Assembly (NCBI GenBank): GCA_963663405.2
Contig: CAXXSM010000100.1
Coordinates: 6,351 to 70,350 of the forward strand
Origin: a bacterium
Lineage (GTDB): Bacteria > Hinthialibacterota > Hinthialibacteria > Hinthialibacterales > Hinthialibacteraceae
Direction of reading: 5' to 3'
Length of the DNA stretch: 64,000 nucleotides
Made by a program: the position numbers and the translations under genes
The notes under the pieces: model-generated
Databases searched by the model: none
Seen by the model: only the letters and a program-made list of their open reading frames with translations
What the model was told of the DNA's origin: nothing
In this document: piece by piece, positions 11,437 to 36,248 of the stretch
Layout of the letters: the number at the start of each line of letters is the position of its first letter
How positions within the stretch are numbered: position 1 is the first letter of the stretch

Positions 11437-11526
11437 ACATATGAAATCCAATGAAAGGAGGTGTAAACAAAAACTGAGAGAACCAAGAGTATAGAATTTC
11501 AAATCTAAACTATGAGGTAAAAAACA

Positions 11527-11985: not shown

Positions 11986-12090
11986 TTAATTTAGTTTTTG
12001 GTTTGGTAGGGTATGGTATGGTTTGGTTTGGGTATTACAACAGCAAAGAACAGTGTTTTTATATATAAAATGAAAGTTGAGGTAAATATC

Positions 12091-12498
12091 ATGCAAGAAC
12101 AAACTAACAAAGAAATCATCGAACGGTTGAGAGAAGAACGTCGCGCTGTAATAAAAGAAGAAAAGCGAATTGCAGAAGAAAAACGACAAAAGCAATTAGC
12201 AGCGGAACAGGCCGAGAAAAACAGACAAGAGAAATTGGAGGACGAACAAAAGAAATTATACACACGCGGCTATGAAGCCGGTAAAAAAATACATTATTAC
12301 AATATGCGGATAATTGTGAATTATCACATTAATGGTAACACATTCAAAGATGAGAGGGAAGAAAAAGCATTTTTAACGGTTTTAAAAGAACACGGTTTTG
12401 GGCCGGGAACCCAGCTTCCCAAGATTAATATTTGGGTTGAAGGCGTAAATGCCTACTGGGAAACAATCCGGGATGATGTCGAATTCGATAAACCATAA
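12091..12498 (+). CDS. Hypothetical coiled-coil phage protein (paralog B)
   Basis: GAGG RBS before the ATG at 12091. ERLREERRAV.. and the C-terminus ..YWETIRDDVE parallel the previous gene. Confidence 0.6.
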   Translation: MQEQTNKEIIERLREERRAVIKEEKRIAEEKRQKQLAAEQAEKNRQEKLEDEQKKLYTRGYEAGKKIHYYNMRIIVNYHINGNTFKDEREEKAFLTVLKEHGFGPGTQLPKINIWVEGVNAYWETIRDDVEFDKP

Positions 12499-12651
12499 CT
12501 AAAATAATCATAAATTCCGGCGCCGGAATGAATTTTTTTAGACCAATTTACTATATATAGTAAAAAATGTGGAGAAATTAGAAAAAAAGTTTGCGCGGCT
12601 TGCATTTTTGGTATATCATATAGTGTATACACTCCAAGAAGGAGCCGTGCA

Positions 12652-13302
12652 ATGGCTAAAGTGAAGTTAGAAACATTGTGTTTCCGATGCAACGAAGAAA
12701 CCGCCAACAAGATTCGCAAACGCGCTGATGAGATGGGACTTTCGCTTTACTCATATCTCAAGCAACAGGCGTTGAGCCGCGAGCCATTGACTCAAGCGGC
12801 GGAGGATTATATCCGCGATATCGCCCGTGGCGTTGCGGAACAATTCGGAGGAGAGCCGGATATTAATTTCGCAAAAACGATGATACTGAATGACGCTACT
12901 GCTGGTTATCTGGCTCATTTCCATGAAGAGGGAATCGACTCACTCGGAGCGCGTCCGTTTCTATTTTTTAAACAGGGCAAACCACTTAGCCCAGAGGAAC
13001 AGCAAGATGCGATGATAAACCGGCGTGTTGAAGAAATCCGGCGGCGGAAAAAAGAATTGGAAGAATGGAAAACGTATGCGAACGCATGCCGGAAACAATC
13101 GGAAGACTGGCAGGCGCTAACGATGGAGGTCGTGCGTGAATCAACTAAAGACAATCCAAATATGGAGGCTATCGCCAACCGATTCAATTTGAAAGCAATT
13201 CCGGAACCAGCGGAAGAGGAGCCAACTTCACCGGCTGAGCCGGAACCGGACGCGATTAAAAACCGGTACAATCCACCGAAAATGGCAAAAGTGAAATCAT
13301 GA
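12652..13302 (+). CDS. Ribbon-helix-helix (MobC/CopG-like N-terminus) protein
   Basis: KLETLCFRCNEETANKIRKRADEMGLSLYSYLKQQAL fits a strand-helix-helix RHH pattern. Confidence 0.5.
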   Translation: MAKVKLETLCFRCNEETANKIRKRADEMGLSLYSYLKQQALSREPLTQAAEDYIRDIARGVAEQFGGEPDINFAKTMILNDATAGYLAHFHEEGIDSLGARPFLFFKQGKPLSPEEQQDAMINRRVEEIRRRKKELEEWKTYANACRKQSEDWQALTMEVVRESTKDNPNMEAIANRFNLKAIPEPAEEEPTSPAEPEPDAIKNRYNPPKMAKVKS

Positions 13303-13679
13303 ATTATCTGGACTGGGAGAACCAAAAATACGAATCCGGCGAATCGGGCGGTGAGTCAGGCGAGAGTTTTATTCCTGCGCCGGTTGTCGCGTTTATTCGA
13401 TGTATTTTAAAGAACGTTAATGATAAATATCCATCGTTGGAACTCGATTTTGGAACCGTCATGGCCAATCTGTTGATTGACTGTGTGGCCAGATATCGCG
13501 CGGAAATGGACCAATTTGGAAAGGCTGTAACTGGTGGACGTGGAGCATTTCTGCTAACAACAGAAGGAGAAATGAGGCGGGGGCAGGATTTATACGACGT
13601 GTTGAAAGCACATTACGCGGCGGAAATTCAGAGGCACACGGATAATGAAAGCAAACGGGAAATCGTCCCGTTGAATTGA
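13299..13679 (+). CDS. Hypothetical phage protein
   Basis: 126-aa ORF whose start overlaps the previous stop (ATGA). Confidence 0.5.
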   Translation: MNYLDWENQKYESGESGGESGESFIPAPVVAFIRCILKNVNDKYPSLELDFGTVMANLLIDCVARYRAEMDQFGKAVTGGRGAFLLTTEGEMRRGQDLYDVLKAHYAAEIQRHTDNESKREIVPLN

Positions 13680-13775
13680 TTTATAAAAAATAAAGCCGAG
13701 CGGCGTCAGTTTGGCGACGGAGGCCACTCGGCGAGAAAAGTAGCACAATAGGCTAGGAGCCTACGGGCTATTCTT

Positions 13776-15119
13776 ATGGTACTATCAATGTCGGTTGATG
13801 GCAATGGAAAAAATGAGAAATCCGGAGGAAAGTTAAGCCGGATCAATCCGCCTAAGCGCACGATTTTCCTGCCTGCCTCCACTTTTGAGACAATATGCTC
13901 TTATCCAATCACAAAGGGCGCGATCCTCTTTTATATAGCGATTAGATCATACGCGAATAGTGAGGGCTGGTGCAATCCATCCATAAAAACTTTCGCCGAA
14001 ATGCTCAGCTGTGACCCGCGATCAATTAAGCGCCATATCCAAGAATTGTGTGAATATGGATTGCTCTCTGTCGAGGTGAATAAAGGGCATTCATCGAATG
14101 ATTATTATTTGAATCTCGAACCAAAGAGAGGGGACAATTTTGTCACCTCTGTCACGGCAAAGAGAGGGGACATTTTTGGTCAAAAAACCGGAAGAGAGGG
14201 GACAAAACGTGTAAAGAGAGGGGACATTCCTGGTAAGGCTAACAATATAAACAGTAATAGAACATCATCAGTAAGAACAATTGATGATGATGAACTAAAT
14301 CCCGCGGGAAAAACACGCAACAGCAACAGCATTCCAAACCTGGATTTTCTTTCAAAAAACAAAAAAGAACTGGCTCTCAAATGCTGGAAAATACATCGCT
14401 CGAAATGGGGATCGGCGGAAGAATTTTCAGATACGCTCCGGCGTATTTCAGAAACGGAATCAGACGAAACGCTCCACGGCGCATTGGAAGATAATTCTGC
14501 TCACAGAAATCCACAGGATAGTGAACGTCTTATGGCGGCGGTATACCGTCTCCGGAAAATCTATCCATTAAATCCAAGCAAGAAGAGATTCGGCGAATGT
14601 GAGAAAGCGAAAGAAGAAGATATCCGCCGGGCTGAAGAGGAAGAGCGAAAACGCTTCCAAAAGGCGCGTGAAAAGGTCCAACGTCACCGGCGCGAGGGCT
14701 GGACGGATGACGAAATAATCCGCAACGATTTTAGCCGATGGGAGAAAGACGAAGTCCTGGAATGCGCTATATCGAAAGAAGCGATTGAAAAGCATTATGC
14801 AGAATTGGAAGCATGGGAAGAGGAAAAGCGAAAAGCCAGAGCCGCGGCAAAAAGAAAAGACCAAGAAGAAAAGCGGATTCTCCGGCTCGAAAAGCAAAAA
14901 CAAGAATACGCCGTATTCATCGAAAAATTGGAAGGCATAACTGAAGCTAAGGCCGCTTTCCAATTGCGTTATCGATTCAACCTCGACGGTAAGTCAATTA
15001 CTCCACAAACCACCGAAGATAAAAAACGGCTTATCGAAATTCTTGAGCGCATAGGTATGCGCTTCGACGTGAATAAGAGTGGCTGTCCGGTTAATTGGGT
15101 TGTTCCGCAGAAAGGATAG
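13776..15119 (+). CDS. Replication-initiator-like protein (winged-helix N-terminal domain), carries internal iterons
   Basis: ..YANSEGWCNPSIKTFAEMLSCDPRSIKRHIQELCEYGLLSV.. is a winged-helix/HTH typical of phage O/DnaD-like initiators. Four iterons lie in the linker, followed by a charged C-terminal half. Confidence 0.6.
   Translation: MVLSMSVDGNGKNEKSGGKLSRINPPKRTIFLPASTFETICSYPITKGAILFYIAIRSYANSEGWCNPSIKTFAEMLSCDPRSIKRHIQELCEYGLLSVEVNKGHSSNDYYLNLEPKRGDNFVTSVTAKRGDIFGQKTGREGTKRVKRGDIPGKANNINSNRTSSVRTIDDDELNPAGKTRNSNSIPNLDFLSKNKKELALKCWKIHRSKWGSAEEFSDTLRRISETESDETLHGALEDNSAHRNPQDSERLMAAVYRLRKIYPLNPSKKRFGECEKAKEEDIRRAEEEERKRFQKAREKVQRHRREGWTDDEIIRNDFSRWEKDEVLECAISKEAIEKHYAELEAWEEEKRKARAAAKRKDQEEKRILRLEKQKQEYAVFIEKLEGITEAKAAFQLRYRFNLDGKSITPQTTEDKKRLIEILERIGMRFDVNKSGCPVNWVVPQKG
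14124..14226 (+). repeat. Four direct iterons AAGAGAGGGGACA (putative origin of replication inside the initiator gene)
   Basis: Copies start at 14124, 14160, 14192 and 14214. They are followed by an AT-rich stretch (about 14230-14300). Confidence 0.7.
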
Positions 15120-15123
15120 AAAA

Positions 15124-15312
15124 ATGAAAAACGTTGAAATGGAAGTGAAAGAAAACAAATTACTCATCGAAGTCGATCTCACGCAGGATCACGGGCCGAG
15201 TAAGAGCGGTAAAACCAACATCGTTGCGACAACCGCCGGAAATGTAGCGGTACCGGGAAATAATTCCGTCCGGCTTGGATTGAATGTCTATAAATACTCG
15301 GAGGAAGAATAG
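15124..15312 (+). CDS. Small hypothetical phage protein
   Basis: AAGGA RBS before the ATG at 15124 (MKNVEMEVKENKLLIEVDL..). Confidence 0.5.
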   Translation: MKNVEMEVKENKLLIEVDLTQDHGPSKSGKTNIVATTAGNVAVPGNNSVRLGLNVYKYSEEE

Positions 15313-15317
15313 AAGCG

Positions 15318-15848
15318 ATGGACTTAATCCGTACCACATTTGAAACAAGCCGCCTGATGGAATTCTTTGATGAAAAAGAATTAACAAAACAAATCGGCCA
15401 CAATCGAGGAATGTGGCCGGTTGCGCTCCTAAAAGAATTAATTGACAACGCGCTGGACGCTTGTGAGAGCGCCGGAGTCAATCCGGTTATCGAAGTCTAT
15501 TTGGAGAAGAATAGTCTCTCTGTCCAGGATAACGGGCCGGGTATTCCACCGGAGACAATCGAGAAATCACTTGATTATAAAATTCGCGTATCGGATAAGA
15601 ATAAATATGTCTCACCAAGTCGAGGTCAACAAGGAAACGCCTTGAAATGTGTGTGGGCTGCTCCGTTCGTTGCTACAGGATCTGGAATTATCGAGATAGG
15701 CACTAGGGGCCAATTACATGAAATCGATGTTTCACTGGATCGATTGACGGAAGAGCCGGAGATTGGCCACACAATCACCGATGATTTTGTAAAAAATGGC
15801 ACTTTTGTAAAAATCCATTGGCCAGAGATAGCATTGCTCTCAGGATGA
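15318..15848 (+). CDS. GHKL (Bergerat-fold) ATPase domain protein, topoisomerase VI-B-like
   Basis: MEFF..(x)..LKELIDNALDA (N box), VQDNGPGIPPE (G1 box) and SPSRGQQGNALK parallel the Topo VI-B N-terminal motifs (AEFF, RELIENSLDA, DNGIGIP, RGxxGxG). Only 176 aa. Confidence 0.65.
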   Translation: MDLIRTTFETSRLMEFFDEKELTKQIGHNRGMWPVALLKELIDNALDACESAGVNPVIEVYLEKNSLSVQDNGPGIPPETIEKSLDYKIRVSDKNKYVSPSRGQQGNALKCVWAAPFVATGSGIIEIGTRGQLHEIDVSLDRLTEEPEIGHTITDDFVKNGTFVKIHWPEIALLSG

Positions 15849-15886
15849 AAGTAAAACGGTCGATCGGAAAGGAGCACAACAACATC

Positions 15887-16066
15887 ATGACTAAGATAAC
15901 GGAACAAACAATAGTGCAGGTCTATTGCCAGCGGTGTGGTCATGCGTTGGCAGGCGCGCCGATAGGATCGAGAGTCTACTGTCCTCCATGCCGTGTATGG
16001 ACATTGGCCAAAGAAACAGCGGACCAACCATTGCTCAAGGAGACGAGGTCATGCAAGGAGAAATAG
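15887..16066 (+). CDS. Small zinc-ribbon protein
   Basis: CQRCG...(x)...CPPC four-Cys pattern. Internal ATG at 15887 of ORF 15818..16066. Confidence 0.4.
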   Translation: MTKITEQTIVQVYCQRCGHALAGAPIGSRVYCPPCRVWTLAKETADQPLLKETRSCKEK

Positions 16067-16275
16067 TTTTGAGCGCTAACCAACTGCGCAGCATCATCCA
16101 CGCTGGACTATGCAATGATCGCATGTGGACCGAGGGCTGCTGTCATGAGATCGCTAAGCAGTCGCACTCCAACGGCGAGATATCGCGCGTATCGTTCGCG
16201 GATCGTGACGCAAGACATTCATTTAAAAATGGAATGAAATTTATGCGTTCTGTTTTGCGCAATGATATTAAGTGA
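16051..16275 (+). CDS. Hypothetical phage protein
   Basis: AAGGAG lies 8 nt upstream of the ATG at 16051. Confidence 0.35.
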   Translation: MQGEIVLSANQLRSIIHAGLCNDRMWTEGCCHEIAKQSHSNGEISRVSFADRDARHSFKNGMKFMRSVLRNDIK

Positions 16276-16313
16276 TATATAATATATTTAACAACAATAT
16301 AGGAGTATACATT

Positions 16314-16601
16314 ATGAGCGTAGCATTCGAGCATTCAGGAACTTCATTACATTTGATCGTTGATTTGAGCGCTGTTGAGAGTCTCAGCAACCAGGACGGC
16401 GGGACGGTCCACGTGGGCAGCATGCACGGCGAGATTAACGAGACGTTAACGAAAGAGGGCTATACGATAGATTTATCTGTCCGCCGGGCACTCACTCCGA
16501 GCGAGCGCGAGCAGTACGGCGCTGACCTCCAACTTGATGCGGCTCCAACGGCCAAGCGCGGAGGGGGAGGGCGGTCCAAATCTCCACAGCCTCAAAAATA
16601 G
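16314..16601 (+). CDS. Hypothetical phage protein
   Basis: AGGAG RBS before the ATG at 16314 (MSVAFEHSG..). Confidence 0.5.
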   Translation: MSVAFEHSGTSLHLIVDLSAVESLSNQDGGTVHVGSMHGEINETLTKEGYTIDLSVRRALTPSEREQYGADLQLDAAPTAKRGGGGRSKSPQPQK

Positions 16602-16674
16602 GAACCGTATAGCCTCGCATCGCGCACACAACCGCAATTCCGGTTAGTTTAGCAATTTGTAAAGGAATATAGCA

Positions 16675-17130
16675 ATGCCAAGACAACCAGTACCTACCAA
16701 CCTAAAGATCCTGCGCGGCAATCCAGGCAAGCGCGCAATCAACAAAAATGAACCGCAGCCGAGCGCGGACGGCGTCAAGTGTCCGTCCTGGTTATCACGC
16801 GACGCCAAGGCCGAGTGGCGGCGTGTGGCGCCGGAGTTAAAGCGGCTCGGCCTATTGACAGTCGTTGACGTGTCCGCGCTGGCAATGTATTGCGAGTCAT
16901 ATTCTCAATGGCGCGAGGCCGTCCGGATTATCGAGCGCGAGGGCCAAACGTATTCACATGACGGACTCATCCGCACTCATCCGGCGTGTCACGTGGCTAA
17001 CAATGCGGCGCGGACGGCTAACCTATTCGCCGGGCAGTTCGGAATGACGCCATCGGCGCGAACGAAATTATCTATCGAGCCGCCACAGCAACCGAGTTTG
17101 GTTGACAAATTTTTGAACCGGAGTGGGTGA
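16675..17130 (+). CDS. Phage terminase small subunit, P27 family
   Basis: ..LKILRGNPGKR.. at the N-terminus and ..FGMTPSARTKL.. at the C-terminus are characteristic of P27-family TerS. Confidence 0.8.
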   Translation: MPRQPVPTNLKILRGNPGKRAINKNEPQPSADGVKCPSWLSRDAKAEWRRVAPELKRLGLLTVVDVSALAMYCESYSQWREAVRIIEREGQTYSHDGLIRTHPACHVANNAARTANLFAGQFGMTPSARTKLSIEPPQQPSLVDKFLNRSG

Positions 17131-17398
17131 TATGGACGGCCTAATTTCACAGAGCCAAGTCGAGGACCAACTCGGTATTAATAAGCTCGCGCTGGACACG
17201 CTCCGGAACTTAGGCGTCCTCATTCCGGTTGACACCGGCGACGGTGAGCCGATGTACAGGCAAAGTGACGTCAGTCCATTTCTATTTTATCGATGCGTGT
17301 ACGTTGACGTAACGCTTGAGCGGGTCCGCGCAATTACAGCGGCGCAAACCGAGACGCCGGAAACTTACAATCCAATGCGGGGTGTAAATAATGGGTAG
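17123..17398 (+). CDS. Small HTH (excisionase/MerR-like) protein
   Basis: ..SQVEDQLGINKLALDTLRNLGVLIPV.. HTH_17-like pattern. Confidence 0.4.
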   Translation: MGDMDGLISQSQVEDQLGINKLALDTLRNLGVLIPVDTGDGEPMYRQSDVSPFLFYRCVYVDVTLERVRAITAAQTETPETYNPMRGVNNG

Positions 17399-19076
17399 AC
17401 AGACTATCGGCCAATTGGTTATTGACTTACAGGCGCAGACGTCCAAATTTCATAGCGATATGAATAAGACGTCACGTATGTGGAATAACAAATTGGATTC
17501 CATGCAGCGGACAGCCAAAAATTTTGGCACTGCCATCAAGGCGTATTTCTCATTTCAGGCGCTAAAAGGTCTATCCAATTTTGTGCAGGATAACATCGCC
17601 TGGGCGTCCTCCATGGCCAAGGTAGCCGATACCGTTGGTCTCTCGCTGGATAAATTCCAAGGCCTCTCGATGATCGTAAAGGAGCTATCCATCGAGCAAA
17701 GCACCTTCGAGCGCGCCATACAGCGAATGACGCGCCGGATCGGCGAAGCAGCCGAGGGAACCGGGACGGCAAAAGACGCATACTCCAAGTTAGGCATCCA
17801 GATTACAGATAGCGCGGGCAAGGTCCGGGATACGTTTTCCATTTTTCTCGACGTGGCGCGCCATTACAAAAAATTAAAAACAGAGGCGGATGAACTAAAC
17901 GTATCCAATCAACTATTTGGCCGTGGGTTTGAGGAGATAAATCTGCTGCTCAGGCAGGGCGCGCCTGCCATCGAAACGCAGATCAAAAAATTCGCGCGCA
18001 TGGGATTGATAATCAAAGATCCGCTCATACGCCAAGCGGAATTAGCGGACGATTCGCTCACAGAAATGAAAGACAGTGTTAGCGCGCTCGGCAAAGAATT
18101 CTCGCTTGTATTGGCTCCGGCGATTAAGACAGCGGCGGACGCCATGAGAACCAATGTAGGCGCAATGCGGCTGCTGTTCTCAAAGGCAACCTGGAATGAC
18201 TGGCTCACGGGCAATCCGCTAAAAACGGCGATCATGTACAACGTTATGTCACCGGCTGAAATGTGGGAAAAATATTACTATGGCGGCAAAGGGAAAAAAC
18301 TACTCGCCTACTCCGGGCTTCGGCTCGTCTAAAGGCGATGACGATTACATGGACGTATTTCCACCGGCGCAGGTAACGAAAACACGCGCCGATTGGATGA
18401 ATGACACTGTTCGCCGGATGAAAGACAATATGGAGTCTCTCACCAATGAAATGCAAATGCAGGTTGACGTCATTCGGGATGAGATGCGCTCGGAGCGGGA
18501 CATATACAATCAGCGATTAGAATTACTCAATCAGGCGCGCTCTATTAACATACTCAACGCCGATGAATTTAATACTATGTCCGAGCATGTAAATAACGTA
18601 TTCAACGGCATGGTAGAGGCCAGCCAGCGTTCTGCTAGATTAATAGAGAGCGGTATATCCGGCGCATTGGAATCAATTGCCAATAACGATCTTAATAATT
18701 TCGTAAATAGTTGGATACGCTCATTTGACAAAATCTTTTTTGATTTGGCCGGGCGGAATATTATCAATTTATTAGAACCAACTATGTTAGGCGCAGGGCG
18801 GGTTCCTAAACTTCGCATTCGGCGGCGTGAGAGCCGCAGGCGGGCCGGTTATGGGCGGCGCGTCCTATCTAGTCGGTGAGCGCGGGGCCGGAGTTGTTCA
18901 CACCGAATATCAGCGGACGGATAACACCGCATGAGCAGATAAAAGGCGCGGGCGATATCAACATTGACACCGGCGGCGCTCCACTATTCACCGTTACAAG
19001 CGGCCATGTAGGGCCACAGAGCGCGGCGCAGTTTAGGACAGGACTTCCTCGAATTCATCGAAGACGCGAGGCGTAA
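17391..19076 (+). pseudogene. Phage tail tape-measure-like protein, split over several frames
   Basis: TP901-type core (..KLGIQITDSAGKVRD..LFGRGFEE..). The C-terminal signature GGPVMGGASYLVGERG / PELFTPNISGRITP can be read only by switching frames around 18800-18890. Covers ORFs 17391..18332, 18280..18879 and 18876..19076. Confidence 0.7.
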
Positions 19077-19080
19077 ACGC

Positions 19081-20309
19081 ATGACTATTATACAACGCAT
19101 AAGACAATACATATGGCCGGAGCGGCGCAGCGAATATGAGAGCGCATGGTACAGCGGCGATCCATTGCCGGAGCGGTTCGGCGCGGCTGGAATTCGTGTC
19201 AACGCTGACAACGCCGTCCAACTAACGGCGGTTTTTCGCGTGTGTGAAAAATATTGAGTGAGACGGTCGCGTCACTTGCCATTGATCCTATACAAGCGCC
19301 TACCGGACGGCGGCAAAGCGCGCGCGGTGGAACATCCGCTATACAAACACGCTCCATGATAGTCCAAATCGTTGGCAGGACGTCGTTAGAATTCCGCAAG
19401 TTACTGCAGAGTCACTTATGTTTGCGCGGGAATGGCTACGCCGAGAAAATACGGCCAGGCGGACGGCTGGAATTGATACCGATCCATCCGGATACCTGCA
19501 CTCCTAAAATGAGTGACAGCGGCGTCATAACGTATGAGGTACAGACGCAGGAACAGCGGCGGACGTTACCGCAGAATAAAATACTGCACTTGCGCGGCAT
19601 TGGCAGTAACGGCCTTGTAGGTTTATCACCAATCGAGATATGCAGGGACGCAATCGGCGCTGGTATGGCAGTACAGCAGTATGGCAGCCGGTTTTTCATG
19701 AACAACGCTAGGCCATCGGGAATTATCGAGTATCCGGGCGTCATGCAGGATAAAGAGGAAATTGCAGCGTTTAAAAAGTCGTGGCAAGAGGCGCAGACGG
19801 GCGCGAATCAACATAAGACGGCCGTCCTTGAGCGCGGCATGACTTACAAGCCGATAGGTATATCCAATGAGGATAGCCAATTCCTTGAGACGCGGAAATT
19901 CAGCGTTGAGGAGATAGCGCGGATATACCGCATACCAATGCATCTTTTACAGTCATTGGACAAGTCGAGTTTTAATAATATCAGTCATCAGTCGATGGAA
20001 TTTCTAACATATACAATGATTCCTTGGTTCCGGCGGTGGGAATCAGTGTTAGCGCGCGATTTACTAACAGCCGAGGAGCGCACAGAGTATTTTTTTGAAT
20101 TCCTTGTCGATGGTTTCCTGCGCGGGGATATCCAGACACGCTATAACGCATACACCAAGGGCCGTCAATGGGGCTGGCTCTCACCTAACGACGTTCGCCG
20201 AATGGAAAACATGAATCCGATCGACGGCGGTGACGAGTATCTTACACCGCTCAATATGCAGGCAATAGGACAGCAAGATAACGGCGCTGACAATGCCGAT
20301 AAAAACTAA
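19081..20309 (+). pseudogene. HK97-family phage portal protein, N-terminal region frameshifted
   Basis: ORF 19254..20309 has portal motifs (..LRGNGYAEKI.., ..FMNNARPSGII.., ..EEIARIYRIP..). The N-terminus (MTIIQRIRQY..AVFRVCEKY) and ..LILYKRLPDGGKARAVEHPLYK.. are in other frames. Confidence 0.8.
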
Positions 20310-20331
20310 CATTTTACCGAGGTAAAAAAAA

Positions 20332-21667
20332 ATGAATGAATTACAGAAATTGCAAGCAAGACAGCGTGAAATTGCGCAGCGTATCATTGACATTAATGAG
20401 GCGGCTGTTTTGGAATCACGGGATTTATCCGAGGATGAAAAAAAGGAATGGCGGGATCTCCGGGCCGAGGAAAAAAAAGAACGCTGAGCGTATCAAGAAA
20501 CTCGAAACCGAGCAGCCAGCCGATGAGCGCAGCGTAGGTATCGAGGCGCTGAGCGCGCAGACGAATGGTGAGAGCCGCCAACGGGCGGCTAACCTGGATC
20601 GCCGGAGTTATCGCGGGATGTTTTGCCGAAATGGTGAACAACTCTCCAACGATGGCTTTTCCTCATTCGAAGAATGGATGGCATGTGTCCACAGTGGCCG
20701 TCCAGACGAGCGTCTGCAGTATCGATCGATGGGCAGCGATATTCCATCTGCAGGCGGTTTTCTCGTACCGGATCAATTCGTAGCCGAAATGTTGGATACC
20801 GGCATTGAGAATGAAATTGTCCGTCCTCGCTGCACTATCTGGCCGATGGTAAGTGACACCGCGCGCGCGCCGGGCTGGGATGGCGCGGATCACTCCAGTT
20901 CGTTATATGGCGGGTTTGCCGGGACGTGGCTCGGCGAGGGCGAGACGGCCACCGAGGTTGACGCGCAGTTTCGTTCCATTGCGCTTACGGCGCACAAATT
21001 GGCAGTCTTTACATCCGCGTCAAGCGAGTTGGTACAAGACAGTTTTCTCTCGTTTGATAGCATCATGAATGACGGTCTGCGCAATGCGCTGTCATGGTTC
21101 CTCGATTATGCGGCCATCAATGGGACCGGCGCGGGCCAGCCGCTCGGATTGGTCAATAACAATTCTGTTGTGTCAGTGGCCAAAGAGTCAGGACAGGCCG
21201 CGTCAACTATCGTGTGGAACAACATCTGCAAGATGTATGCGCGTATGTGGCCAAGTGGCCATCAAAATGCCATCTGGATTGCCAACAATACTATCATTCC
21301 ACAATTGTTGGCGCTTACCATTCCGGTTGGTACCGGCGGAAGTGCAGTCGGTCCTAACATCGGCCATCCAGTAATGAAAGAGGATAGTGGTAGTTTTTCA
21401 CTACTCGGCAAGCCGATTTATTTCACAGAAAAAGCTCAATCTCTGGGCACAGCGGGCGATATTATGTATGTCGATCTCTCACAATACGTCATGGGATTGC
21501 GAAAAGAGATCATTATCGAAAAGTCCAACGCCGTCCATTGGACAAGTGACAAGCAAGCCTACCGCGCCATCATGAGGGCCGATGGTATGGGCAAGTGGAA
21601 TAGCGCCATCACACCGAAAAACGGCGATACGCTTAGTTGGTGCGTAACGCTGGCGGCAAGGTCGTAA
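20332..21667 (+). pseudogene. HK97-family major capsid protein, frameshift in an A8 run
   Basis: The ATG at 20332 gives a coiled-coil delta-domain start (MNELQKLQARQREIAQRIIDINE..RAEEKKER*). The A8 run at 20471-20478 separates it from the frame of ORF 20336..21667 (..AGGFLVPDQF.., ..SELVQDS..). Confidence 0.85.
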
Positions 21668-21673
21668 GCTAAC

Positions 21674-22099
21674 ATGAGGACTTACATTCCGCTCATAGCG
21701 TTGTTAGTCATTCTCGCGGGCGCGGCCTATGGCGCTCATTGGTCATGCACAACAACCGAGGATATATCCTGGTCCGTGCGAAAAATTACATGGTCCTGGA
21801 TATCCAACGCAACCGGCGAGGTGGACGCGCAGACAACCGCGTATTTCTCCGGCGCGCCACTCGGTTTCATTGCCGAGCCAGCGGGCGGGGTATCCGCGCC
21901 ATCGGCTGACTATGATATCTCGATCACCGATGAGAATGAATACGACTTACTGCAGTCGAGCGGGGTGGATATGTCAGCGGCGACTAGCGTCTATATTTTC
22001 GATGCGACGTTGACGCCGATATCGAACGATAGGCTTACATTGCATATCAGAGCTGCCGGGAATGCGAACAGCGGCACGGTGGTTTTGTATCTGCGATAG
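21674..22099 (+). CDS. Hypothetical protein with signal peptide, downstream of the capsid gene
   Basis: MRTYIPLIALLVILAGAAYGA.. hydrophobic leader. No family recognised. Confidence 0.5.
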   Translation: MRTYIPLIALLVILAGAAYGAHWSCTTTEDISWSVRKITWSWISNATGEVDAQTTAYFSGAPLGFIAEPAGGVSAPSADYDISITDENEYDLLQSSGVDMSAATSVYIFDATLTPISNDRLTLHIRAAGNANSGTVVLYLR

Positions 22100-22180
22100 G
22101 GTTTCATCCAACCTGCTCGGCTTGTCCATTCCGTGCGGGTAGGTTTTGGTCTCGCCGTTCTCAGGCGGGCTTCGTCGAAC

Positions 22181-22219
22181 AGCCGGGCGCACTACATATG
22201 ATGTAGCCGCGTCCGGCTC
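22181..22219 (+). terminator. Hairpin after the structural operon
   Basis: AGCCGGGCGCACTACAT-ATG-ATGTAGCCGCGTCCGGCT forms an imperfect long stem followed by CTCCTTTT. Confidence 0.4.
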
Positions 22220-22317
22220 TCCTTTTAAAAATGCGCTCTAACGGGCGCTCTCTCTCGCTCGTGGTTTCTATCGGAAAATTCGAGAAGTCCTCACCTGCGC
22301 AGCGAGGCTTGGCCGTT

Positions 22318-23490
22318 CTAGCCGTTTTCCGCTTTCGCCTGTACGTCCGCAAACGATATGATTTTCGATCCATGTTTCCCCAACGCCTCACGCAGCGGGT
22401 CCTGTGCTAGATGCGCGTAGACTTCGGTTGTGCTGAGCGTGGATTGATTCAACGCCTTGCCAACGAGTATCAGCGACTCCCCGGAGGACGCCAGCCAGGA
22501 GCCTACCGTCCTGCGCAGATCATGGATTCGCAGCGTTGGCATTCCGGCGCGGTTGCGGATGCGATGCCATTGGCGCTTTGGAAATATCGCCCAGTGTTTC
22601 GATGGATCGGGGCCGGGGAATATCCATTTACAATTATCGATTCGGGGAATCATTTCGAACATGCCGAGAGCGGCAGTGCTGAGCGGCAAATAAAACGGGC
22701 GGCCTGCCTTTGTATCGTCCAACTTGAGAATCCTTTGCTCACGATCTAAGTCTTTCCATTCTCGCCGCATTAATTCACGATTCCGTAGGCCGGTTAAGAG
22801 GTACAGCCACAGTCCGGCGCGTACGACGGGATTCCACTCCTCATTAATCGCGGCGGCCAATTTAGGTAATTCGTCCGGCGTTACCCACACGTCCCGTTTT
22901 TCCTCTCGATTTTTCTTTATCCGTCTCGCCGGGCTGACGTTATCCTCTTTCAGGAAACCTTCGTTGATTGCGTATGAGTGTATGCGCGAGACGAGAGAGA
23001 CAATTCTATTGGCTTCGATGGGCGCGGTTTTCGATATACGATCATGTATTTTTTCTGATATCCGGGCGGGTGATCGAATCGGCTTTTTTCTTTCCAAGTT
23101 CGGGGCGCAGGTGTTTTTTCAATCCGGCGGCGGTCCTGAACGCCGGTTTTCAATTTCGATGCGTGGCGGGTTAAATAATCGTCAAGAATATCATTGAATG
23201 TTACCGATGGCTTGCCGCGCTTATCTGGATTGTTTACCGGCGGCAATGGTGAGATTCTTTATTCCAGCAATCTGACGCGCCTTCTCCGGCGTGATATTCG
23301 GATATTTTGCGATTGTGATCCATTTCAATTTTCCTTCCCACCGATAGCAGTAGACGAAAGACTTTTGACCGGATTTAAAAAACACGCAGACCGAAATGTG
23401 CGGTTTTCCGTATCCCAGATTATGCCAGGTGTTTTTACTGACTCGCAGAGGTGAGTTGTTATTTTTTTTTTCATAACAGTGGGCCTCCAA
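22318..23490 (-). pseudogene. P4-type tyrosine integrase (DUF4102-like N-terminus), three or more frameshifts at A runs
   Basis: N-terminus ..SFVYCYRWEGKLKWITIAKYPNITPEKARQ.. (23221..23490). Middle ..NPDKRGKPSVTFNDILDDYL.. (frame of 22950..23246). Catalytic part ..LRNRELMRREWKDLD.., ..RIHDLRRTVGSWL.., ..LSTTEVYAHL (22318..23097). Confidence 0.85.
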
Positions 23491-23640
23491 AAAAATAACA
23501 GTGGTTCTAACAGTGGGCCGTTTGAGCTAACACCAAGCTAACACATATGTCTATTTCTGTCCATATCGGAAAATGTAAAAGTAAAAATTTCCTAGGAAAA
23601 ACGGGGATTTGTATATGTCTGTCCATGTAGGGGCGATTGC

Positions 23641-23792: not shown

Positions 23793-23970
23793 ACTCTTAG
23801 ATCTTTTCCCAGTTTGAATATAATAAATCAATTCATCTCGGCAGGATCAGAAATTACCATTCAAACAAAATTCAAAAATCCCCGCCAGCTGCGCTAGCGC
23901 AGCAAAAAGACAAAAGCAAAGAGTATAAAGTGTCAAAGTGCAAAGGGTAAAAGCGATACAGCAAAAAGCG

Positions 23971-24791
23971 CTAATAAGTCCGGGAATACACAACTCGCAA
24001 ACCTATGACGTCGTCCCTGAGATCTGGGGCCCTGTCGAACCGGTACGCCGATCGGCAGTTCTCTGGATTGTAGAACCAGGAACCGCCCCGAAACACACGA
24101 GCTGCCCCACGGGGTGAATCAATCCAAGCGGAACCATCTTGAGGCGCCTCTTTGTAATTCTCATGCCAATCATCTTCACACCATTCCCGCACATTTCCGC
24201 TCATATCACAAAGCCCCCATAGATTTGGGGATTTTTCTACCTACTTGCTTCGTTTCCTCTTATCACATTATTGTCCGGATACCACGCATAATTCCATATT
24301 TCTCGATAATCATCATCCTCTCCCCAATAAAAGCGTGTCTTCGTTCCCGCCCGGCATGCGTATTCCCATTCCGCTTCGCTTGGAAGGCGAAATGTTCCTT
24401 GACCGAGTTGATTCAATTCAGTAATGAATCTTTGACAATCATCCCAGGAGACAGATTCAACTGGATGATCGGGTTTCCCTTTAAATTCAGAAGGATTCTC
24501 ACCCATCACAGCTTTCCATTGCGCCTGGGTGACGGGATATTTACCAAGATAACAATCATAATCTATTTTGACTATATGCTGTGGACTTTCATCATCATAT
24601 CGACCTTTCTCATTCTTTGGACTTCCCATCTTGAATCTACCCTTGGGTATATGAACAAATTCGATAGGAATCGATTCATTTGGCAAATTCGGTAATTGAA
24701 TGATGATGGTGTCCACGTTCATGTATTTCGAATGCGTCTCGTTTCTTAATTTGGATTTGAGGAACTTTCGTTTGCTCATTCCACGGTTCAA
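23971..24791 (-). CDS. FGE-sulfatase (SUMF1-like) domain portion of target 1 (two fragments), carries VR1
   Basis: ..FVHIPKGRFKMGSP..ESPQH..VTQAQW..VSWDDCQRF..FRLPSEAEWEYACRAG.. and ..MSGNVREWCEDDW..RGGSW..CRSA..R. Confidence 0.85.
23981..24110 (-). repeat. DGR variable repeat VR1
   Basis: Gap-free 130-nt match to the TR. All 20 mismatches (hand count) are at TR adenines (plus-strand T). Confidence 0.9.
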
Positions 24792-25489
24792 TCAAGAGTG
24801 TTTCTTCCAGCCATCTTCGTTTCTCATCTGCAACTGAACATTCCGTAAGCAGACAATCCATTAACAATTCCGATGATTGCATGTATTGGATAATATTCGA
24901 CAAATCTTCTGGAACTTGCAATGGATTCGAGAAATCAATATCAACGTGTGGATCAAACGATCGTTTTTCATTTTTTCTAAATAGGCTCTGGACAAATTCA
25001 CGTATTTCATCACTTCCCGAAGTTGCGAATAAAGCAAGCATTTTATTGACGGAATGAGGATTTGAATTGCTGGAACAAATACAACCTTCAAGATTCTGAA
25101 GAAGCCCAATCACTTCATCATTGGCAAGTTTTGAAATTCCCCGGCGCATAGAAATCAAAAATGAGTATGGATCGCTTAGTTTCTTCCGTTATCAATAAAA
25201 AAAACTTCACGCCATCGCTGTTCCCGCATATGCCGTTCAATAATGGAATCAAGATTCTGGGGATGTTCAACAATCCACAACGCGGTTAAATACTCATGGA
25301 AAGTGAGATGAGAGAAGGAATAGATATGCCTAGCGCGTTCAACCAACAAACCATGATGGCTTTCAATGGAACAAAGCAAAGTTCGACTATCAGTCAGTGC
25401 AATTCCTTTTTCAAATTGAAAAGTTTGTTGAAGGTAATGGGAAATATTATTTTCCAGAGATCTCCGTTTCATAAAAATAGTGTTCTTCA

Positions 25490-27049
25490 TTAAAAACTTT
25501 GATACGCCAATTCTGTCAATAATGAAATTTTAATCTCTTCTGTGAACGACTCTACAACATCAGGCCGTACGATCCCTCTTGTTAAATCCCATTCACGTAT
25601 TAACAAATCGAATGTTTCTCGATATAAATCAGCGCGGCTGGATGGAAACCGTTCTTTTTCAGAATTAGAAAAGACCCAACATAATAATGTTAGAAGCAAT
25701 GGATTTGTAGCTAACTCTAGAAGAGATCGATTCCTATTAATTTCATCATAACACTTTTGTGCTTTTTGGGGATTCTTTTTAAACCAGTTTTGTATAAATG
25801 TTCTGATCTGATCTTCATTAAAGTCCGCCACTTCAACTAAAGTAAATTTTTCAAAGGTTCTGTTATAAGCGGCAAGACGACAGCTAATGATAAAACGGTT
25901 TTTGTTATATCGTTTTGTAAACAAACGAATGGTCTGCACGGCTTCAGCTATTGTACTAAATGAAACCTCATCCAAACCATCCATAATAACTACACAATTC
26001 CCTTTTCTTAGATGCTGGCTGGTAAACTGCATTGCATCTTTAACATCTGCATCTTCAAATTGTTTGGAAATAAATTCAAGTATTGTGTTTTTGCTATCAG
26101 ACCATTCTTTTAAACTTATGAATATGGGTATCTTTTGTTTGTGAAGTTTTCCTTTAAGTATCTCAATGGTTATATATTTAAAAAAAGTAGTTTTCCCCGC
26201 TCCCGGTTTTCCTAATACCATCAAATGGTCATCGTTATCTTTTAATATTTCTATCCCTTCTACGGATTTATTTGAAGACGGATATTGACGCTGCTCGTTT
26301 GATCGAAACTGTTTCTCTAGTTCACTTAACTCAACGGATTGCTCTTTTGTGATCTTCTCAAGAATATGAACTTTAACATATATCGAATCCAAGGATATAT
26401 CTTTATCCATTCCTAAAATCTGAATCGAACTATTGTTCTCATAAATCTTATTTTTATAGGTTTTTAAGTCATGCTCAAAAACTTGCGTTTCTAAAACTGG
26501 TTCGTGAGTAAAAAAAATCTTTGAATCGATATTCGATGTATATAGTTTTATCTCTCCAAGAGGTGGTATTTCTATTTGATGAGTCATAAAACGATATAAA
26601 GTAATGTACTCTCTTTGAATAGATACATTAAAATATCCATAAATCTGCATGAATTCTGGAATATATAAATCCCATTCCGCATGAAAGACAATCGGAATGT
26701 ATTTTTCATTTAATGATTTCTGTTTATATAATTTATAATTAATATTTTGTAATTCTCTAAAACTTCCACGTTTATCAGATTTAGAATATTGTTCTGAACA
26801 TACTATTAATACAAAATCCGCTTTTTCGATTTGTTCAGACATCCAATCGAGCCATCCTTTAGGTGGGAACGGCTCATATTGGTCTATCCAACAATCTAAA
26901 CCATCATATCGAAGTTGATTCGCAAATGACAAAACAAGTTCACTATGCTCATTTGTTTCATGGCAATAGCTGATAAATACTCTTATTTTTTTGGGATAAT
27001 TTTCCATTTTTTTGTTCCAAGACATTTTCCTAGAAATTCTCTTATTCAA
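25490..27049 (-). CDS. TIR-superfamily (SEFIR-like) + NACHT P-loop NTPase fragment of target 1
   Basis: The N-terminus IRVFISYCHETNEHSELVLSFANQLRYDGLDCWIDQ..ADFVLIVCSEQY is TIR/SEFIR-like. Walker A is VLGKPGAGKTTF; Walker B is VVIMDGLDEV. Confidence 0.85.
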   Translation of the reverse strand: MNKRISRKMSWNKKMENYPKKIRVFISYCHETNEHSELVLSFANQLRYDGLDCWIDQYEPFPPKGWLDWMSEQIEKADFVLIVCSEQYSKSDKRGSFRELQNINYKLYKQKSLNEKYIPIVFHAEWDLYIPEFMQIYGYFNVSIQREYITLYRFMTHQIEIPPLGEIKLYTSNIDSKIFFTHEPVLETQVFEHDLKTYKNKIYENNSSIQILGMDKDISLDSIYVKVHILEKITKEQSVELSELEKQFRSNEQRQYPSSNKSVEGIEILKDNDDHLMVLGKPGAGKTTFFKYITIEILKGKLHKQKIPIFISLKEWSDSKNTILEFISKQFEDADVKDAMQFTSQHLRKGNCVVIMDGLDEVSFSTIAEAVQTIRLFTKRYNKNRFIISCRLAAYNRTFEKFTLVEVADFNEDQIRTFIQNWFKKNPQKAQKCYDEINRNRSLLELATNPLLLTLLCWVFSNSEKERFPSSRADLYRETFDLLIREWDLTRGIVRPDVVESFTEEIKISLLTELAYQSF

Positions 27050-27268: not shown

Positions 27269-27398
27269 CGGGAATACACAACTCGCAAACCTATGTTGTT
27301 GTTCCTGTTATCTGGGGTCCTGTTGTTCCGGTTCGCCGATCGGCAGTTTTCTGGATTGTTGTTCCAGGAACCGCCCCGAATCACACGAGCTGCTCTTT
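27269..27398 (-). repeat. DGR template repeat (TR)
   Basis: Translates (non-functionally) to [40 protein letters not shown], with about ten AAC codons. It overlaps the 3' end of the RT ORF. ORF 27121..27384 in the track is this repeat, not a gene. Confidence 0.9.
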
Positions 27399-28463
27399 CC
27401 TGATATATCCCCTTTCTTTACAATTTTTGCGTTTTCGAATAAAGACGTACGTAATCCCCATGAATCGGCATGTGAGACATGACCGATCCAACTGACAACC
27501 GATTGCGTCACATCAAACAATGCGATTTGCTTCTCACGATATTGAACGCGCAATTTCTTGAATCTTTTCAAAAACCGGTGGCCATTGCCATTCCGCACTA
27601 ATACATGACTGGGAAAAACACGATAACCCAGAAAATCAATCCCATCTCTAACCGGAACAACATGCGCGCAGTTTTCATGAATGGATAAATGGTTCTGATT
27701 CAACAAATAGTCAGAGATTTCGTTTTTGATTTCATACAATCGTTGTTTTGAATGATGCAGGACAAGCATATCATCCACATAGCGCAGGTAGGCTTTCACT
27801 CCCAAGGTCTCTTTCACAAAATGATCGAATGGATTCAGATAGACGTTAGCAAAAAATTGGCTGGTTAAATTACCGATTGGAATCCCCAAAGGCCCGTCAA
27901 AATTCAATAGATAATTCCCACGATCGTCAATCGGGTGAGGCTCACGGTAGCTGCGCAGTATATGACGTATTAACCATAAGATGGATTGATCGCCGATTTT
28001 CCGGGAGAGAATTGAGAATAATAAATCCTGTCGAATACTCTGGAAATACTTTCGTATATCTATTTTGATGGAGTACGGATAGTGTTGGATCAACGTTTTC
28101 AATCGATTCACCGCCGCATGAGTCCCTTTACCTTTACGGCATGCGTAGGAATCAGAGATAAACGATCGCTCGAAAATCGGTTCGATGATATTGCAAAAGG
28201 GCATGATGAACGATACGATCACGATAGGGAGCGGCGCTGATGGTTCTTTTCTTCCCTTCATTAATGACAAATTCCCGATACCCTCCATGTTGATACGTCT
28301 TTGTCTCTAATTCACGCTGTAACCGTAAGATCTCTCGCTCAAAATTGAGGTTAAATAGACTCACTTCAAAGCGGAATCGCTTCCCCTTTTGCGCTTTTTT
28401 GGACGCCAGCAATAAATTTTGAAAATCCCTTAGTTGGGGATAAAGGTTTTTATAACGTTTCAT
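27308..28463 (-). pseudogene. DGR-type reverse transcriptase, one frameshift near 28190-28200
   Basis: N-terminal ORF 28152..28463 (..[17 protein letters not shown]). It continues in ORF 27308..28288 ([26 protein letters not shown].., IGNLTSQFFANVYL, YLRYVDDMLVL). The junction lies at GCCCTTTTGC. Confidence 0.85.
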
Positions 28464-28804
28464 GCTTTCGCCTGCTGCTTGATCCAGCCTCCCAACATAG
28501 ATCCCACTTCATCTAAAATTTCAGAGATATACTTGTATCGGCGGAGATCAACAAATTTAAGATCTTTAGCCAATCTCGCCAAGAAACGGAATTTCTCCAA
28601 ATCTAAATTCGCGCGTTTCAGTAGAGCAATTTTCGAGCGTGAATACGAAGCTTCCACCAAAAGATCCAAGATCTCCAACAATACATTTTCCATACGGGAG
28701 CCAATCGTATATCGCTTATTTTTGGGGAATTTTTCAATCAAAGGCATCATCCAAAGAATGATGTCATACATTTTCTGCACGATAGCGGGGTGATTGCTTT
28801 TCAC
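28460..28804 (-). CDS. avd: Avd (accessory variability determinant), four-helix-bundle protein
   Basis: ..[33 protein letters not shown].. is typical of the four-helix-bundle (Avd / 23S-IVS protein) family. GGAGGA lies 5 nt upstream of the GTG at 28804. The 3' end overlaps the RT start. Confidence 0.8.
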
Positions 28805-28920
28805 GTGAATCCTCCAATTTAAAAAATATTCGCGAGCTGCGCTAACGCGCAGCAAAAAGACAAAAGCAAAAAGTATAAAGAGTCAAAGTGCAAAGGGTAA
28901 AAGCGATACAGCAAAAAGCG

Positions 28921-30157
28921 CTAATAAGTCCGGGAATACACAACTCGCAAACCTAAGTAGTTGACCCAGCTAACTGGGGACCTGAAGAACCGGAACGCCG
29001 ATCGGCAGCAGTCTGGATTGTAGTACCAGGAACCGCCCCGAATCACACGAGCGCCTCTACGGGGTGAATCAATCCAAGCGGAACCATCTTGAGGCGCCCC
29101 TTCAAAATTCTCATGCCAATCATCCTCACACCATTCCAGCACATTCCCGCTCATATCATAAAGCCCCCATGAATTCGGTTTCTTTTTCCCCACAGGATGT
29201 GTTTTTTGAGAAGAATTTCCAGTAAACCATGCAAACTGATTTATTTCTTTGATACTCAGGATCATCTCCCCAATAGAACCGCGTGCTTGTACCTGCCCGG
29301 CAAGCGTATTCCCATTCCGCTTCGCTTGGAAGACGGAACGTTCCTTGACCGAGATCATTCAATTTTTTGATGAAATTTTGACAGTCATCCCATGATACGC
29401 ATTCGACTGGGCGATTTGTGTTTCCCTTAAAATTAGCAGGATTCTTACCTAAAACCGCTCTCCATTGTTTTTGAGTTATTGGATATTTCCCTAAATAGAT
29501 ATCATGAGGAATAGTCACTTGATGCTGCGGACTTTCATATTCAGATCTATCTTTTTCTTTTTCCGGACTTCCCATCATGAAGGAACCTGCAGGAATTTTG
29601 CACAATAATAGAGGAACAGATTTACCTGTTGAACTGGGGATTTTAAATTCGATCTCGGAAGATTCATCTATAACTGGTTCGATTGATTTTAAAGGCGGTT
29701 CTACTATTGATGTAGTTGTATCCCTTTCAGGAGGTCCTTCTTCATCCGGCTTGTTTGGTTTGGAAGGTGTTCCGATTAATGATTGAATGGACTTGATAAG
29801 GTTATCAAAGTCTGTATTAGGTGTCCCCTTTTTCCAGCCGGTAAGATCAACCGTTTTAAGATCTCTGAATCCAAAAGGAGGACGTACTTTTTCAATGAAT
29901 ATTGGCCTTAAAATATTTTTATTTAGACCTTCTCTTGCCTCTTCTTTTACCCACTTGGATTTAATAGACGATTCTGACCAAAGCACGATAACACAATGGG
30001 TATTGTCAAGTTCAGCGTCGATAAAATCATAGATATTTTCTGCTATCGGGACTTCTCGATCCCAAAAAACAGACCACCCCCGCGATTGCAATTCTTCAGC
30101 GATAACCTTCGCAATTGCAATATCGTCACTTTTATAGCTAATAAAAATATCACTCAT
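28921..30157 (-). pseudogene. DGR target 2: TIR domain fused to FGE-sulfatase (C-type lectin fold) domain, one frameshift near 29260
   Basis: The N-terminus MSDIFISYKSDDIAIAKVIAEELQSRGWSVFWD..VIVLWSESSIKSKWVKEEA is a TIR. This is followed by a PSKPNKPDEEGPP linker, then ..CKIPAGSFMMGSP..ESPQH..RLPSEAEWEYACRAG.. . The C-terminal fragment ORF 28921..29358 carries VR2. Deleting one base in GAGTATCAAAGAA restores ..DDPEYKEINQFAWF. Confidence 0.85.
28931..29060 (-). repeat. DGR variable repeat VR2
   Basis: Gap-free 130-nt match to the TR. 22 of 23 mismatches (hand count) are at TR adenines. Confidence 0.9.
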
Positions 30158-35346: not shown

Positions 35347-36248
35347 TCATTCCAATTCGATTGTATACGCGATCATCTGCTCGCCTTGATCCGGGGCTTT
35401 CACGGCCCAATTTCCATCGGGACGCAAGACACCGGTCGGCGCGGAGCAAGGTATATCCGTTGGATGGCAATTATCCGCAGTCACGATCCAGACGTTTCCC
35501 GCCTGGGCGCGGATACGCAGATTCGTTTCGTGGAACGGCCAAAAAACAGTCTTGGACCATTCTCCTCCATTCCGCCCTCCGTTGATCGCGTGAAAAATGA
35601 TCTTCGCGCCCATATCGGATAATTGCTGGCTGAGATGAGGATCAGGCATCGGTGTGCAACCGGGATTACCCCATAGGTCATTACAGATCAAACCACCAAT
35701 GGTAAGCCCATCAAGATTGAACACTCGCAAAGGCCGCGCCGCATAATGGTTAATTTCCCCGCGAGACGGTTCGGTCATTGAACCACAGCGGAGGATTTTA
35801 TTATGAAATCCAAGAAAATTCCCTTTGACCATCATAAAATCGAATCTGGTTGTAACAGCGTTGATCGTCCGGTTCCACGAAACACGTGCCCAGCGCCAAA
35901 GCCAATCCCGCTTTAGAAGAGCGTTTTAGAAGTTGCTTTAAACCTTCCTCAACTTGCGATTGATCAAATTCATGTGTATACCCGCTCAACGATCCTTCGG
36001 GTCGTCAACAGAATATCAGCGTTCTCAGCGATCGCCCAATCGATCGAGCGGGTGATGGTCTTCACATTTTCGGCGATATCCCGCGTAACGGGAATTTGCG
36101 CCGCCGCTACCCGGATTGTTTTTCCCGCGCTTTTCTCTTGTTCTTCCATCGTTTGTTTATTCAATTCTTCCTCTGCATGGATGATTGTACTTTGAAAAAA
36201 TACTATAACGGCTCCAATGATTATGATAGACAATGTATATTTCATCAT
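35347..36248 (-). pseudogene. Carbon-nitrogen hydrolase (nitrilase superfamily), two frameshifts
   Basis: Signal peptide plus ..IRVAAAQIPV.. (35970..36248), ..PEGSLSGYTHEF.. (frame of 35801..35989), ..LTIGGLICNDLW.. with the catalytic Cys (35347..35835). Confidence 0.7.

Follow-up and report, generated by a model that had tools for sequence, protein, structure and literature searches.

A predicted TIR-lectin fusion as the second target of a two-target diversity-generating retroelement in a bacterial contig

The DNA analysed here (64,000 nucleotides of contig CAXXSM010000100.1, hereafter the window) carries on its minus strand a diversity-generating retroelement (DGR) cassette in which a reverse transcriptase (RT) and the accessory variability determinant Avd lie between two target genes, T2 and T1. 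The second target, T2, very probably encodes a TIR-lectin fusion diversified by this DGR. In transcriptional order the cassette consists of T2, avd, RT, the template repeat (TR) and T1, with one variable region (VR) at the 3' end of each target gene. Its features are as follows (pLDDT, predicted local distance difference test).

28921..30157, minus strand: T2 gene, encoding a TIR domain, a linker and an FGE/C-type-lectin variable domain; split as assembled, 411 aa without one extra base
29768..30157, minus strand: TIR domain of T2, aa 1-130, from Pfam TIR_2, the AbTir alignment and pLDDT 80-97
29660..29767, minus strand: flexible Pro/Glu/Lys-rich linker of T2, approximately aa 131-166 (about 35 aa), of low pLDDT
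28921..29659, minus strand: FGE-sulfatase/C-type-lectin fold domain of T2, of the TvpA type, from Pfam, PDB profile and Foldseek matches
29248-29251, minus strand: +1 frameshift of T2, one extra base in TAT-C-AAA-G
28931..29055, minus strand: VR2, the 3'-terminal variable region of T2, from TR/VR comparison
28836..28853, no strand assigned: GC-rich palindrome GCTGCGC-TAAC-GCGCAGC, about 75 nt 3' of VR2
28460..28804, minus strand: intact avd, Pfam bAvd E 1.5e-21, with a likely GTG start at 28804 after GGAGGA
27308..28463, minus strand: DGR reverse transcriptase, RVT_1 E 1.6e-14, containing the motifs YVDD and IGNLTSQ; interrupted by a single extra T
27269..27393, minus strand: TR, 125 nt with 37 adenines, overlapping the 3' end of the RT open reading frame (ORF)
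23971..27049, minus strand: T1, the SEFIR/TIR-NACHT-NCH2-FGE first target, NACHT E 3.3e-16; broken by six insertion events
24231, 24261, 24711, 25182, 25204 and 25488-25489, minus strand: insertion sites in T1, single bases except for two in one T run
23981..24105, minus strand: VR1, the variable region of T1, from TR/VR comparison
23888..23903, no strand assigned: near-identical GC palindrome GCTGCGC(TA)GCGCAGC, about 75 nt downstream of VR1

The domain composition of T2 was evident from Pfam matches in two overlapping reading frames. Thus, the ORF at 30157..29156 (minus strand, 333 aa) matched TIR_2 over aa 4-120 with E 3.7e-21 (76.3 bits against a cut-off of 28) and the first half of FGE-sulfatase over aa 187-305 with E 3e-24, and the ORF at 29358..28921 (145 aa), in a different frame, covered the remainder of FGE-sulfatase (profile positions 159-254, E 2.8e-23). 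The domain scan detected no NTPase in T2, the TIR and lectin domains being separated only by the disordered linker of about 35 aa. An AlphaFold model of T2 built on a 120-sequence alignment had a mean pLDDT of 90.9, with residues 136-159 below 50 in the linker. These results upheld the original prediction of a TIR domain joined through a linker directly to an FGE-sulfatase domain that ends in VR2.

The N-terminal residues of T2, MSDIFISY, are identical to the family signature of its homologues, which indicates that the assigned start codon is right. The protein has no signal peptide and opens directly with the first TIR strand and is, therefore, probably cytoplasmic. The TIR had also been described as canonical with its conserved Glu present, in agreement with the TIR_2 match and with the alignment of E73 (in WVKEEA) to the Glu in the WTNYEL motif of AbTir, which we take to be the catalytic E208, and to the corresponding residue of two other solved bacterial TIRs in the alignment (7uxr and 7uwg). 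E73 was invariant in 25 members of the TIR-FGE family. The lectin domain matched Treponema denticola TvpA (2y3c) in a PDB profile search with E 1.6e-45, and the top Foldseek matches were PvdO and TvpA, with target-normalised TM-scores of 0.81 and 0.70, respectively.

The identification of T2 as the second target of the local DGR was borne out by comparison of each VR with the 125-nt TR. VR2 differed from TR by 20 mismatches at TR adenines and by a single non-adenine mismatch, which is located at the 5' edge, and all 16 substitutions in VR1 were at TR adenines. The residues encoded by VR1 and VR2 differed at 15 of the 17 changed codons, as had been anticipated for most diversified codons, and the variable stretch of T2 comprised its last 37 codons or so. 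Avd scored 115.8 bits against NCBIfam DivGenRetAVD, for which the cut-off is 80, and the window RT was 37-47% identical to the RTs of other DGR loci. The pattern of mismatches indicates that TR is copied by the avd-RT-TR unit with adenine-specific errors and that the product is written into VR2 and VR1. The GC palindromes sit in a stretch of about 100 nt 3' of the VRs that is conserved among T1, T2 and the related locus L001 described below, whereas the flank of TR differs. They are candidate target-recognition hairpins or terminators, although their spacing from the VRs is unlike that of the BPP-1 paradigm. In a promoter scan, sites were no more numerous than in shuffled sequence.

The T1 protein differs from T2 in having an NTPase that separates effector from FGS domain, the arrangement of effector-STAND NTPase-FGS systems, and its N-terminal 519 aa matched the PADLOC bSEFIR model with E 2.7e-35. 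The N-terminal half of T1 was 38% identical to its orthologue in L001 and the C-terminal half 68-79% identical; this difference suggests that an effector-NTPase module may have been exchanged between otherwise orthologous cassettes. Derivation of T2 from T1 by loss of the NTPase was considered and rejected, as the TIRs of the two proteins share only 16 bits.

A database search with repaired T2 recovered the truncated ORF of the window itself (P0002), the sole record of this sequence, together with P0001, an intact homologue of 410 aa that is 77% identical. Over 20 additional proteins with the two-domain TIR-FGE layout, 375-413 aa in length and approximately 45-48% identical, were also retrieved, for at least 24 close homologues overall. 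P0001 lies in L001, a 5.5-kb contig, where it immediately follows an intact gene for a 994-aa TIR-NACHT-FGE protein, and both VRs of this locus differ from the window TR at the same adenine positions. Gene order is not the same in the two loci; T1 is directly upstream of T2 in L001 (873-5276), whereas T2, avd, RT and TR precede T1 in the window. In comparisons of T2 with the L001 copy, the ratio of nonsynonymous to synonymous substitution rates (dN/dS) was 0.55 for the whole gene, 0.26 for the lectin scaffold and approximately 1.15 for the linker, and reached 7.3 in the VR, where dS was 0.05. By this measure the lectin scaffold is under purifying selection. The other loci examined were as follows (MAG, metagenome-assembled genome).

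L002 (1590-8675) and L164 (162-7244), Halobacteriota archaeon MAGs: TIR-STAND(AAA_16/NACHT)-TPR, SLATT (DUF4231-SLATT_1), TIR-FGE, HRDC, Avd and RT
L165 and L166: a module of TIR-STAND-TPR, SLATT and TIR-FGE, with no RT nearby
L167, a short contig: SLATT and TIR-FGE genes only, with no RT nearby
L003: SLATT followed by two TIR-FGE genes, with no STAND gene
L006 (599-10261), Methylococcaceae: SIR2-TIR, nSTAND1-FGE, Avd, RT, TIR-FGE, DNA methylase and x-FGE
L011, Bryobacteraceae: x-FGE, Avd, RT and two TIR-FGE genes, with no STAND gene
L005, Accumulibacter: ParA-TIR-nSTAND1-FGE and TIR-FGE
L084, L097 and L034: solitary TIR-FGE among housekeeping genes or beside a transposase

The expectation that similar fusions would lie beside DGR RTs in other genomes was confirmed by TR/VR mismatches at TR adenines in L002 and L164 (16/16 and 13/13, respectively, at the TIR-FGE end), L006 (16/19) and L011 (13/15). 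The DGR of L006 has three FGE-type targets, namely nSTAND1-FGE, TIR-FGE and a 642-aa x-FGE protein. A STAND NTPase gene adjoined TIR-FGE in eight of the 13 loci examined (window excluded), and the partner was TIR-bearing in seven of these eight. The TIRs of TIR-FGE proteins were mutually close across phyla, forming one clade (80-236 bits), whereas comparison with the TIRs of STAND neighbours gave only 16-50 bits. These relationships indicate that the TIR-FGE fusion is an old, conserved unit that has spread horizontally rather than a local deletion product of T1.

A scan of viral contigs detected no TIR-FGE protein, only FGE-domain matches, and the exact DNA around the T2 frameshift was also absent from them. 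Among the matches listed in metagenome and genome scans, most were FGE-only relatives. In a profile search with the TIR-FGE alignment against 1.84 billion representatives, giant proteins with multiple FGE repeats dominated the output, and the search was, as a result, uninformative on family size. The closest homologues of the xylulokinase encoded in the window bear the label Candidatus Omnitrophota (75% identity), with Candidatus Hinthialibacter at 63%. No island syntenic with the window cassette was present in the Omnitrophota-labelled loci L168 and L169, which are unrelated.

The cassette occupies an AT-richer stretch of the window. A phage-like block on the plus strand (11500-23500) contains genes for NikA-like and HTH proteins, a minor tail protein (17391-18332), a portal (19254-20309) and a capsid (20336-21667) and ends, directly beside the cassette, at a fragmented tyrosine integrase gene (22318-23490, minus strand) that is read as three ORFs through +1 shifts, two of the breaks being in A6 runs. 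This block is possibly a degraded prophage or satellite. A nitrilase-like gene outside the cassette (35347-36248, minus strand) is likewise divided into three ORFs by +1 shifts. The first 11000 nucleotides of the window, at 33-40% GC, include a transposase-like ORF (71-934), a gene for a Sel1-repeat-like protein (1429-2157), several ORFs without annotation and a second integrase gene, likewise fragmented (7741-8516), and may represent another mobile or defence island.

The explanation that we favor, to which we assign a probability of about 60%, is that T2 is a TIR-lectin DGR target in which a captured ligand drives TIR activation. In this scheme the hypervariable lectin face of T2 would bind an invader or other ligand, and the TIR domains of T2 would be drawn together, probably by a multivalent ligand or with the help of T1, the co-encoded TIR/SEFIR-NACHT-lectin protein; once clustered, the TIRs would begin to cleave NAD+ or to produce a nucleotide signal. 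NAD+ depletion would be the likeliest output in the window because no separate downstream effector is found there, whereas in the archaeal relatives the SLATT membrane protein would be the likely receiver of a signal. The specific step by which ligand capture clusters the TIRs is more tentative than the scheme as a whole and stands slightly below an even chance.

Several observations weigh against this explanation. TIR NADases normally need to oligomerise or self-associate, and T2 lacks an oligomerisation module; activation would, therefore, need a multivalent ligand or a partner. Neither SLATT nor any other downstream effector or receiver was detected in the window, and the predicted clustering of the VR residues on one face of T2 comes from alignment to TvpA. 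The dN/dS of the T2 TIR, at 0.51 in comparison with L001, is fairly high. Finally, T2, RT and T1 are all frameshifted in the record, and the cassette as recorded cannot work unless the extra bases are consensus errors.

The original prediction of a minimal two-domain sensor-effector fared less well than its other claims, as the STAND genes adjoining TIR-FGE and the SLATT genes of the archaeal loci weaken the idea that T2 acts alone. Autonomous action of T2 as a minimal sensor-effector is still plausible. The recurrence of a STAND neighbour, together with SLATT in archaea, suggests that many TIR-FGE members work in a small multi-gene system, although the three solitary loci indicate that such partnership is not obligatory. 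A broader and more speculative proposal, which we consider rather unlikely as a whole, is that NTPase-less TIR-lectins form a distinct and ancient clade of programmable intracellular receptors in bacteria and archaea, in which the lectin face is rewritten by the DGR and capture of a ligand directly drives TIR signalling; in Methanosarcinales-type archaea the signal would pass to a SLATT pore encoded in the operon, alongside a TIR-STAND-TPR partner.

The frame breaks bear directly on the strongest alternative, namely that the DGR island of T2, RT and T1 is a decaying pseudogene cluster beside a degraded phage-like element and that T2 is inactive today. A frameshift near 29260, which the original prediction had raised together with possible lack of the TIR Glu, proved to be one extra base in the assembly at 29248-29251, whereas the Glu (E73) is present. 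Removal of C from TAT-C-AAA-G restored EYKEINQFAW, in agreement with EYKEIDQFAW of the intact relative in L001, and the corrected protein was collinear with intact homologues. In RT the break was an extra T at 28195-28198, by which CTT-TGC (Leu-Cys) became CTTTTGC, and in T1 the six insertion events amounted to seven bases by comparison with the intact 994-aa orthologue. Programmed frameshifting was rejected as an explanation because the eight sites are scattered and no known +1 slippery motif is present at 29248-29251.

Decay of the island would account for the occurrence of eight breaks within approximately 6.2 kb while long ORFs elsewhere in the window (e.g., 873, 719, 707 and 642 aa) are intact, a distribution far from uniform, and would be in keeping with fragmentation of the neighbouring integrase gene, with the AT-richness of the island relative to its flanks and with the absence of an identical intact allele from the collections searched. 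A count of neighbouring open frames throughout the window was too noisy to provide a background frameshift rate. The form of the breaks points the other way. Thus, every one of the eight is an insertion, with no deletion among them, the 1023 codons of corrected T1 contain no in-frame stop once two extra bases are removed from a T5 run, VR1 and VR2 show essentially no non-adenine decay (none and one difference from TR, respectively), the part of T2 that follows its break has a dN/dS (0.385) not above that of the gene as a whole, and the nitrilase-like gene outside the island has the same +1 pattern. Taken together, these findings argue for consensus insertion errors or very recent events. Since deletions and nonsense codons should also arise in natural decay, consensus errors are a serious possibility and, from the sequence, would appear to fit the insertion-only breaks and stop-free T1 better than ordinary pseudogene decay. 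We lean somewhat toward an assembly error over a genuine break in T2, and regard a dead island as a substantial possibility that nevertheless falls short of even odds.

A second alternative, tentative and less probable than a dead island, is that T2 serves as a co-receptor or adaptor, its TIR docking on the TIR/SEFIR domain of a STAND partner (T1 in the window, TIR-STAND-TPR in archaea) and thereby giving one NTPase-gated oligomer a second recognition surface that is diversified independently. A STAND gene beside TIR-FGE in L001, L002, L164, L165, L166, L005, L006 and the window is consistent with such docking, as is the presence of a TIR in each of these partners except that of L006, where nSTAND1-FGE is accompanied by a separate SIR2-TIR gene upstream, and the same logic was described for shared adaptor domains by Kaur et al. 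(PMC8195603). Homotypic pairing is not obvious, however, from the remote relationship of T2-type and partner TIRs (16-50 bits), and docking on a STAND protein would not explain the solitary TIR-FGE genes of L084, L097 and L034 or the tandem TIR-FGE genes of L003 and L011, which lack a STAND gene.

It is improbable that T2 functions outside immunity, as a regulatory sensor that tunes intracellular signalling to environmental or self ligands. Although Vallota-Eastman et al. (PMC7517822) read TIR-, kinase- and GAF-CLec variable proteins as components of signal transduction (CLec, C-type lectin), the neighbours of T2 and its relatives are classic parts of conflict systems (NACHT/bSEFIR-like T1 in the window; SLATT, SIR2-TIR and DNA methylase in related loci), and the Glu typical of NADase TIRs is invariant. 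An FGE-family enzyme of the SUMF1/EgtB/PvdO type with TIR as an accessory domain is suggested by the source name of homologues ('SUMF1/EgtB/PvdO family nonheme iron enzyme') and by PvdO as the top structural match, and can be dismissed given that every NCBIfam enzyme equivalog is far below its cut-off, that the first copper-binding Cys of T. curvata FGE (6s07) aligns to a Tyr at a DGR-variable TR AAC codon, the second Cys being kept, and that the C-terminus of T2 is a DGR VR.

For the window itself, the significance of the result is chiefly one of annotation, as the cassette is a two-target DGR of known type that is possibly damaged or mis-assembled. More generally, none of the intracellular sensors diversified by DGRs has been characterised by experiment (PMC10907252); no paper was found that connects a DGR target with NADase activity, nor one that connects SLATT with DGRs where a SLATT gene lies beside a DGR-diversified TIR-lectin gene. 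A protein of about 400 aa with a predicted enzymatic TIR read-out and a programmable binding face of 37 codons would be about the smallest system in which to test a hypermutated lectin as the trigger of an immune effector. The intact relatives, i.e., P0001 in L001 and the archaeal cassettes of L002 and L164, are better experimental starting points than the frameshifted T2 of the window. If the proposal of an NTPase-less receptor clade is true, no simpler hypermutating receptor-effector immune proteins would be known outside vertebrates, and the hypothesis of a 'DGR-diversified antigen sensor' could be put to a tractable test in them.

Comparison with known systems indicates that the T2-type architecture is common in databases rather than novel and that direct TIR-lectin fusion in a DGR target is already on record, though little discussed. 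Thus, the variable proteins listed by Vallota-Eastman et al. (2020) include AUT00751.1 of Nostoc sp. CENA543, entered as 'Toll receptor TIR, CLec', as well as a 'CLec & Toll/TIR' paralogue class. Like T2, the cyanobacterial proteins have an N-terminal TIR on a C-terminal C-type-lectin/FGE domain with a DGR VR and are predicted to be cytosolic. T2, compared with AUT00751.1 by description only, differs in its non-cyanobacterial host, in its pairing with the SEFIR/TIR-NACHT-CLec protein T1 and in being a frameshifted copy.

Effector-STAND-FGS proteins tied to DGRs, with TIR among the effectors and FGS as the proposed invader sensor, were described by Kaur et al. (2021), and clade 5D of Dore et al. 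(2024; PMC10907252) comprises two-target DGRs with STAND-CLec targets, some of them with TIR and none characterised. The window cassette shares with these systems avd, RT, two CLec targets, a TIR-class effector and a TvpA-like FGS sensor. T1 is exactly of that kind, whereas T2 lacks the NTPase switch and oligomerisation module and has a TIR from a separate conserved clade.

The VR of T2 aligns residue for residue with that of TvpA (RVLRGGSW...LGFRL versus RVIRGGSW...LGLRV), although TvpA is a surface lipoprotein without TIR and T2 begins with TIR in place of a signal peptide. With bacterial TIR NADases and signal generators, including AbTir, ThsB of Thoeris, TIR-SAVED and TIR-STING, T2 shares the TIR_2 fold and the W-x-x-x-E motif; matches to ThsB, SAVED-TIR and ThcB4 models were partial, confined to the TIR segment and sub-threshold (PADLOC E 1e-5 to 6e-10). 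No ThsA-like gene was found among ORFs and in domain scans of the cassette and flanks, the part of the window that was scanned. The chief difference from these enzymes would lie in the source of activation, which in the latter is a nucleotide or partner sensor and in T2 would be the fused hypervariable lectin.

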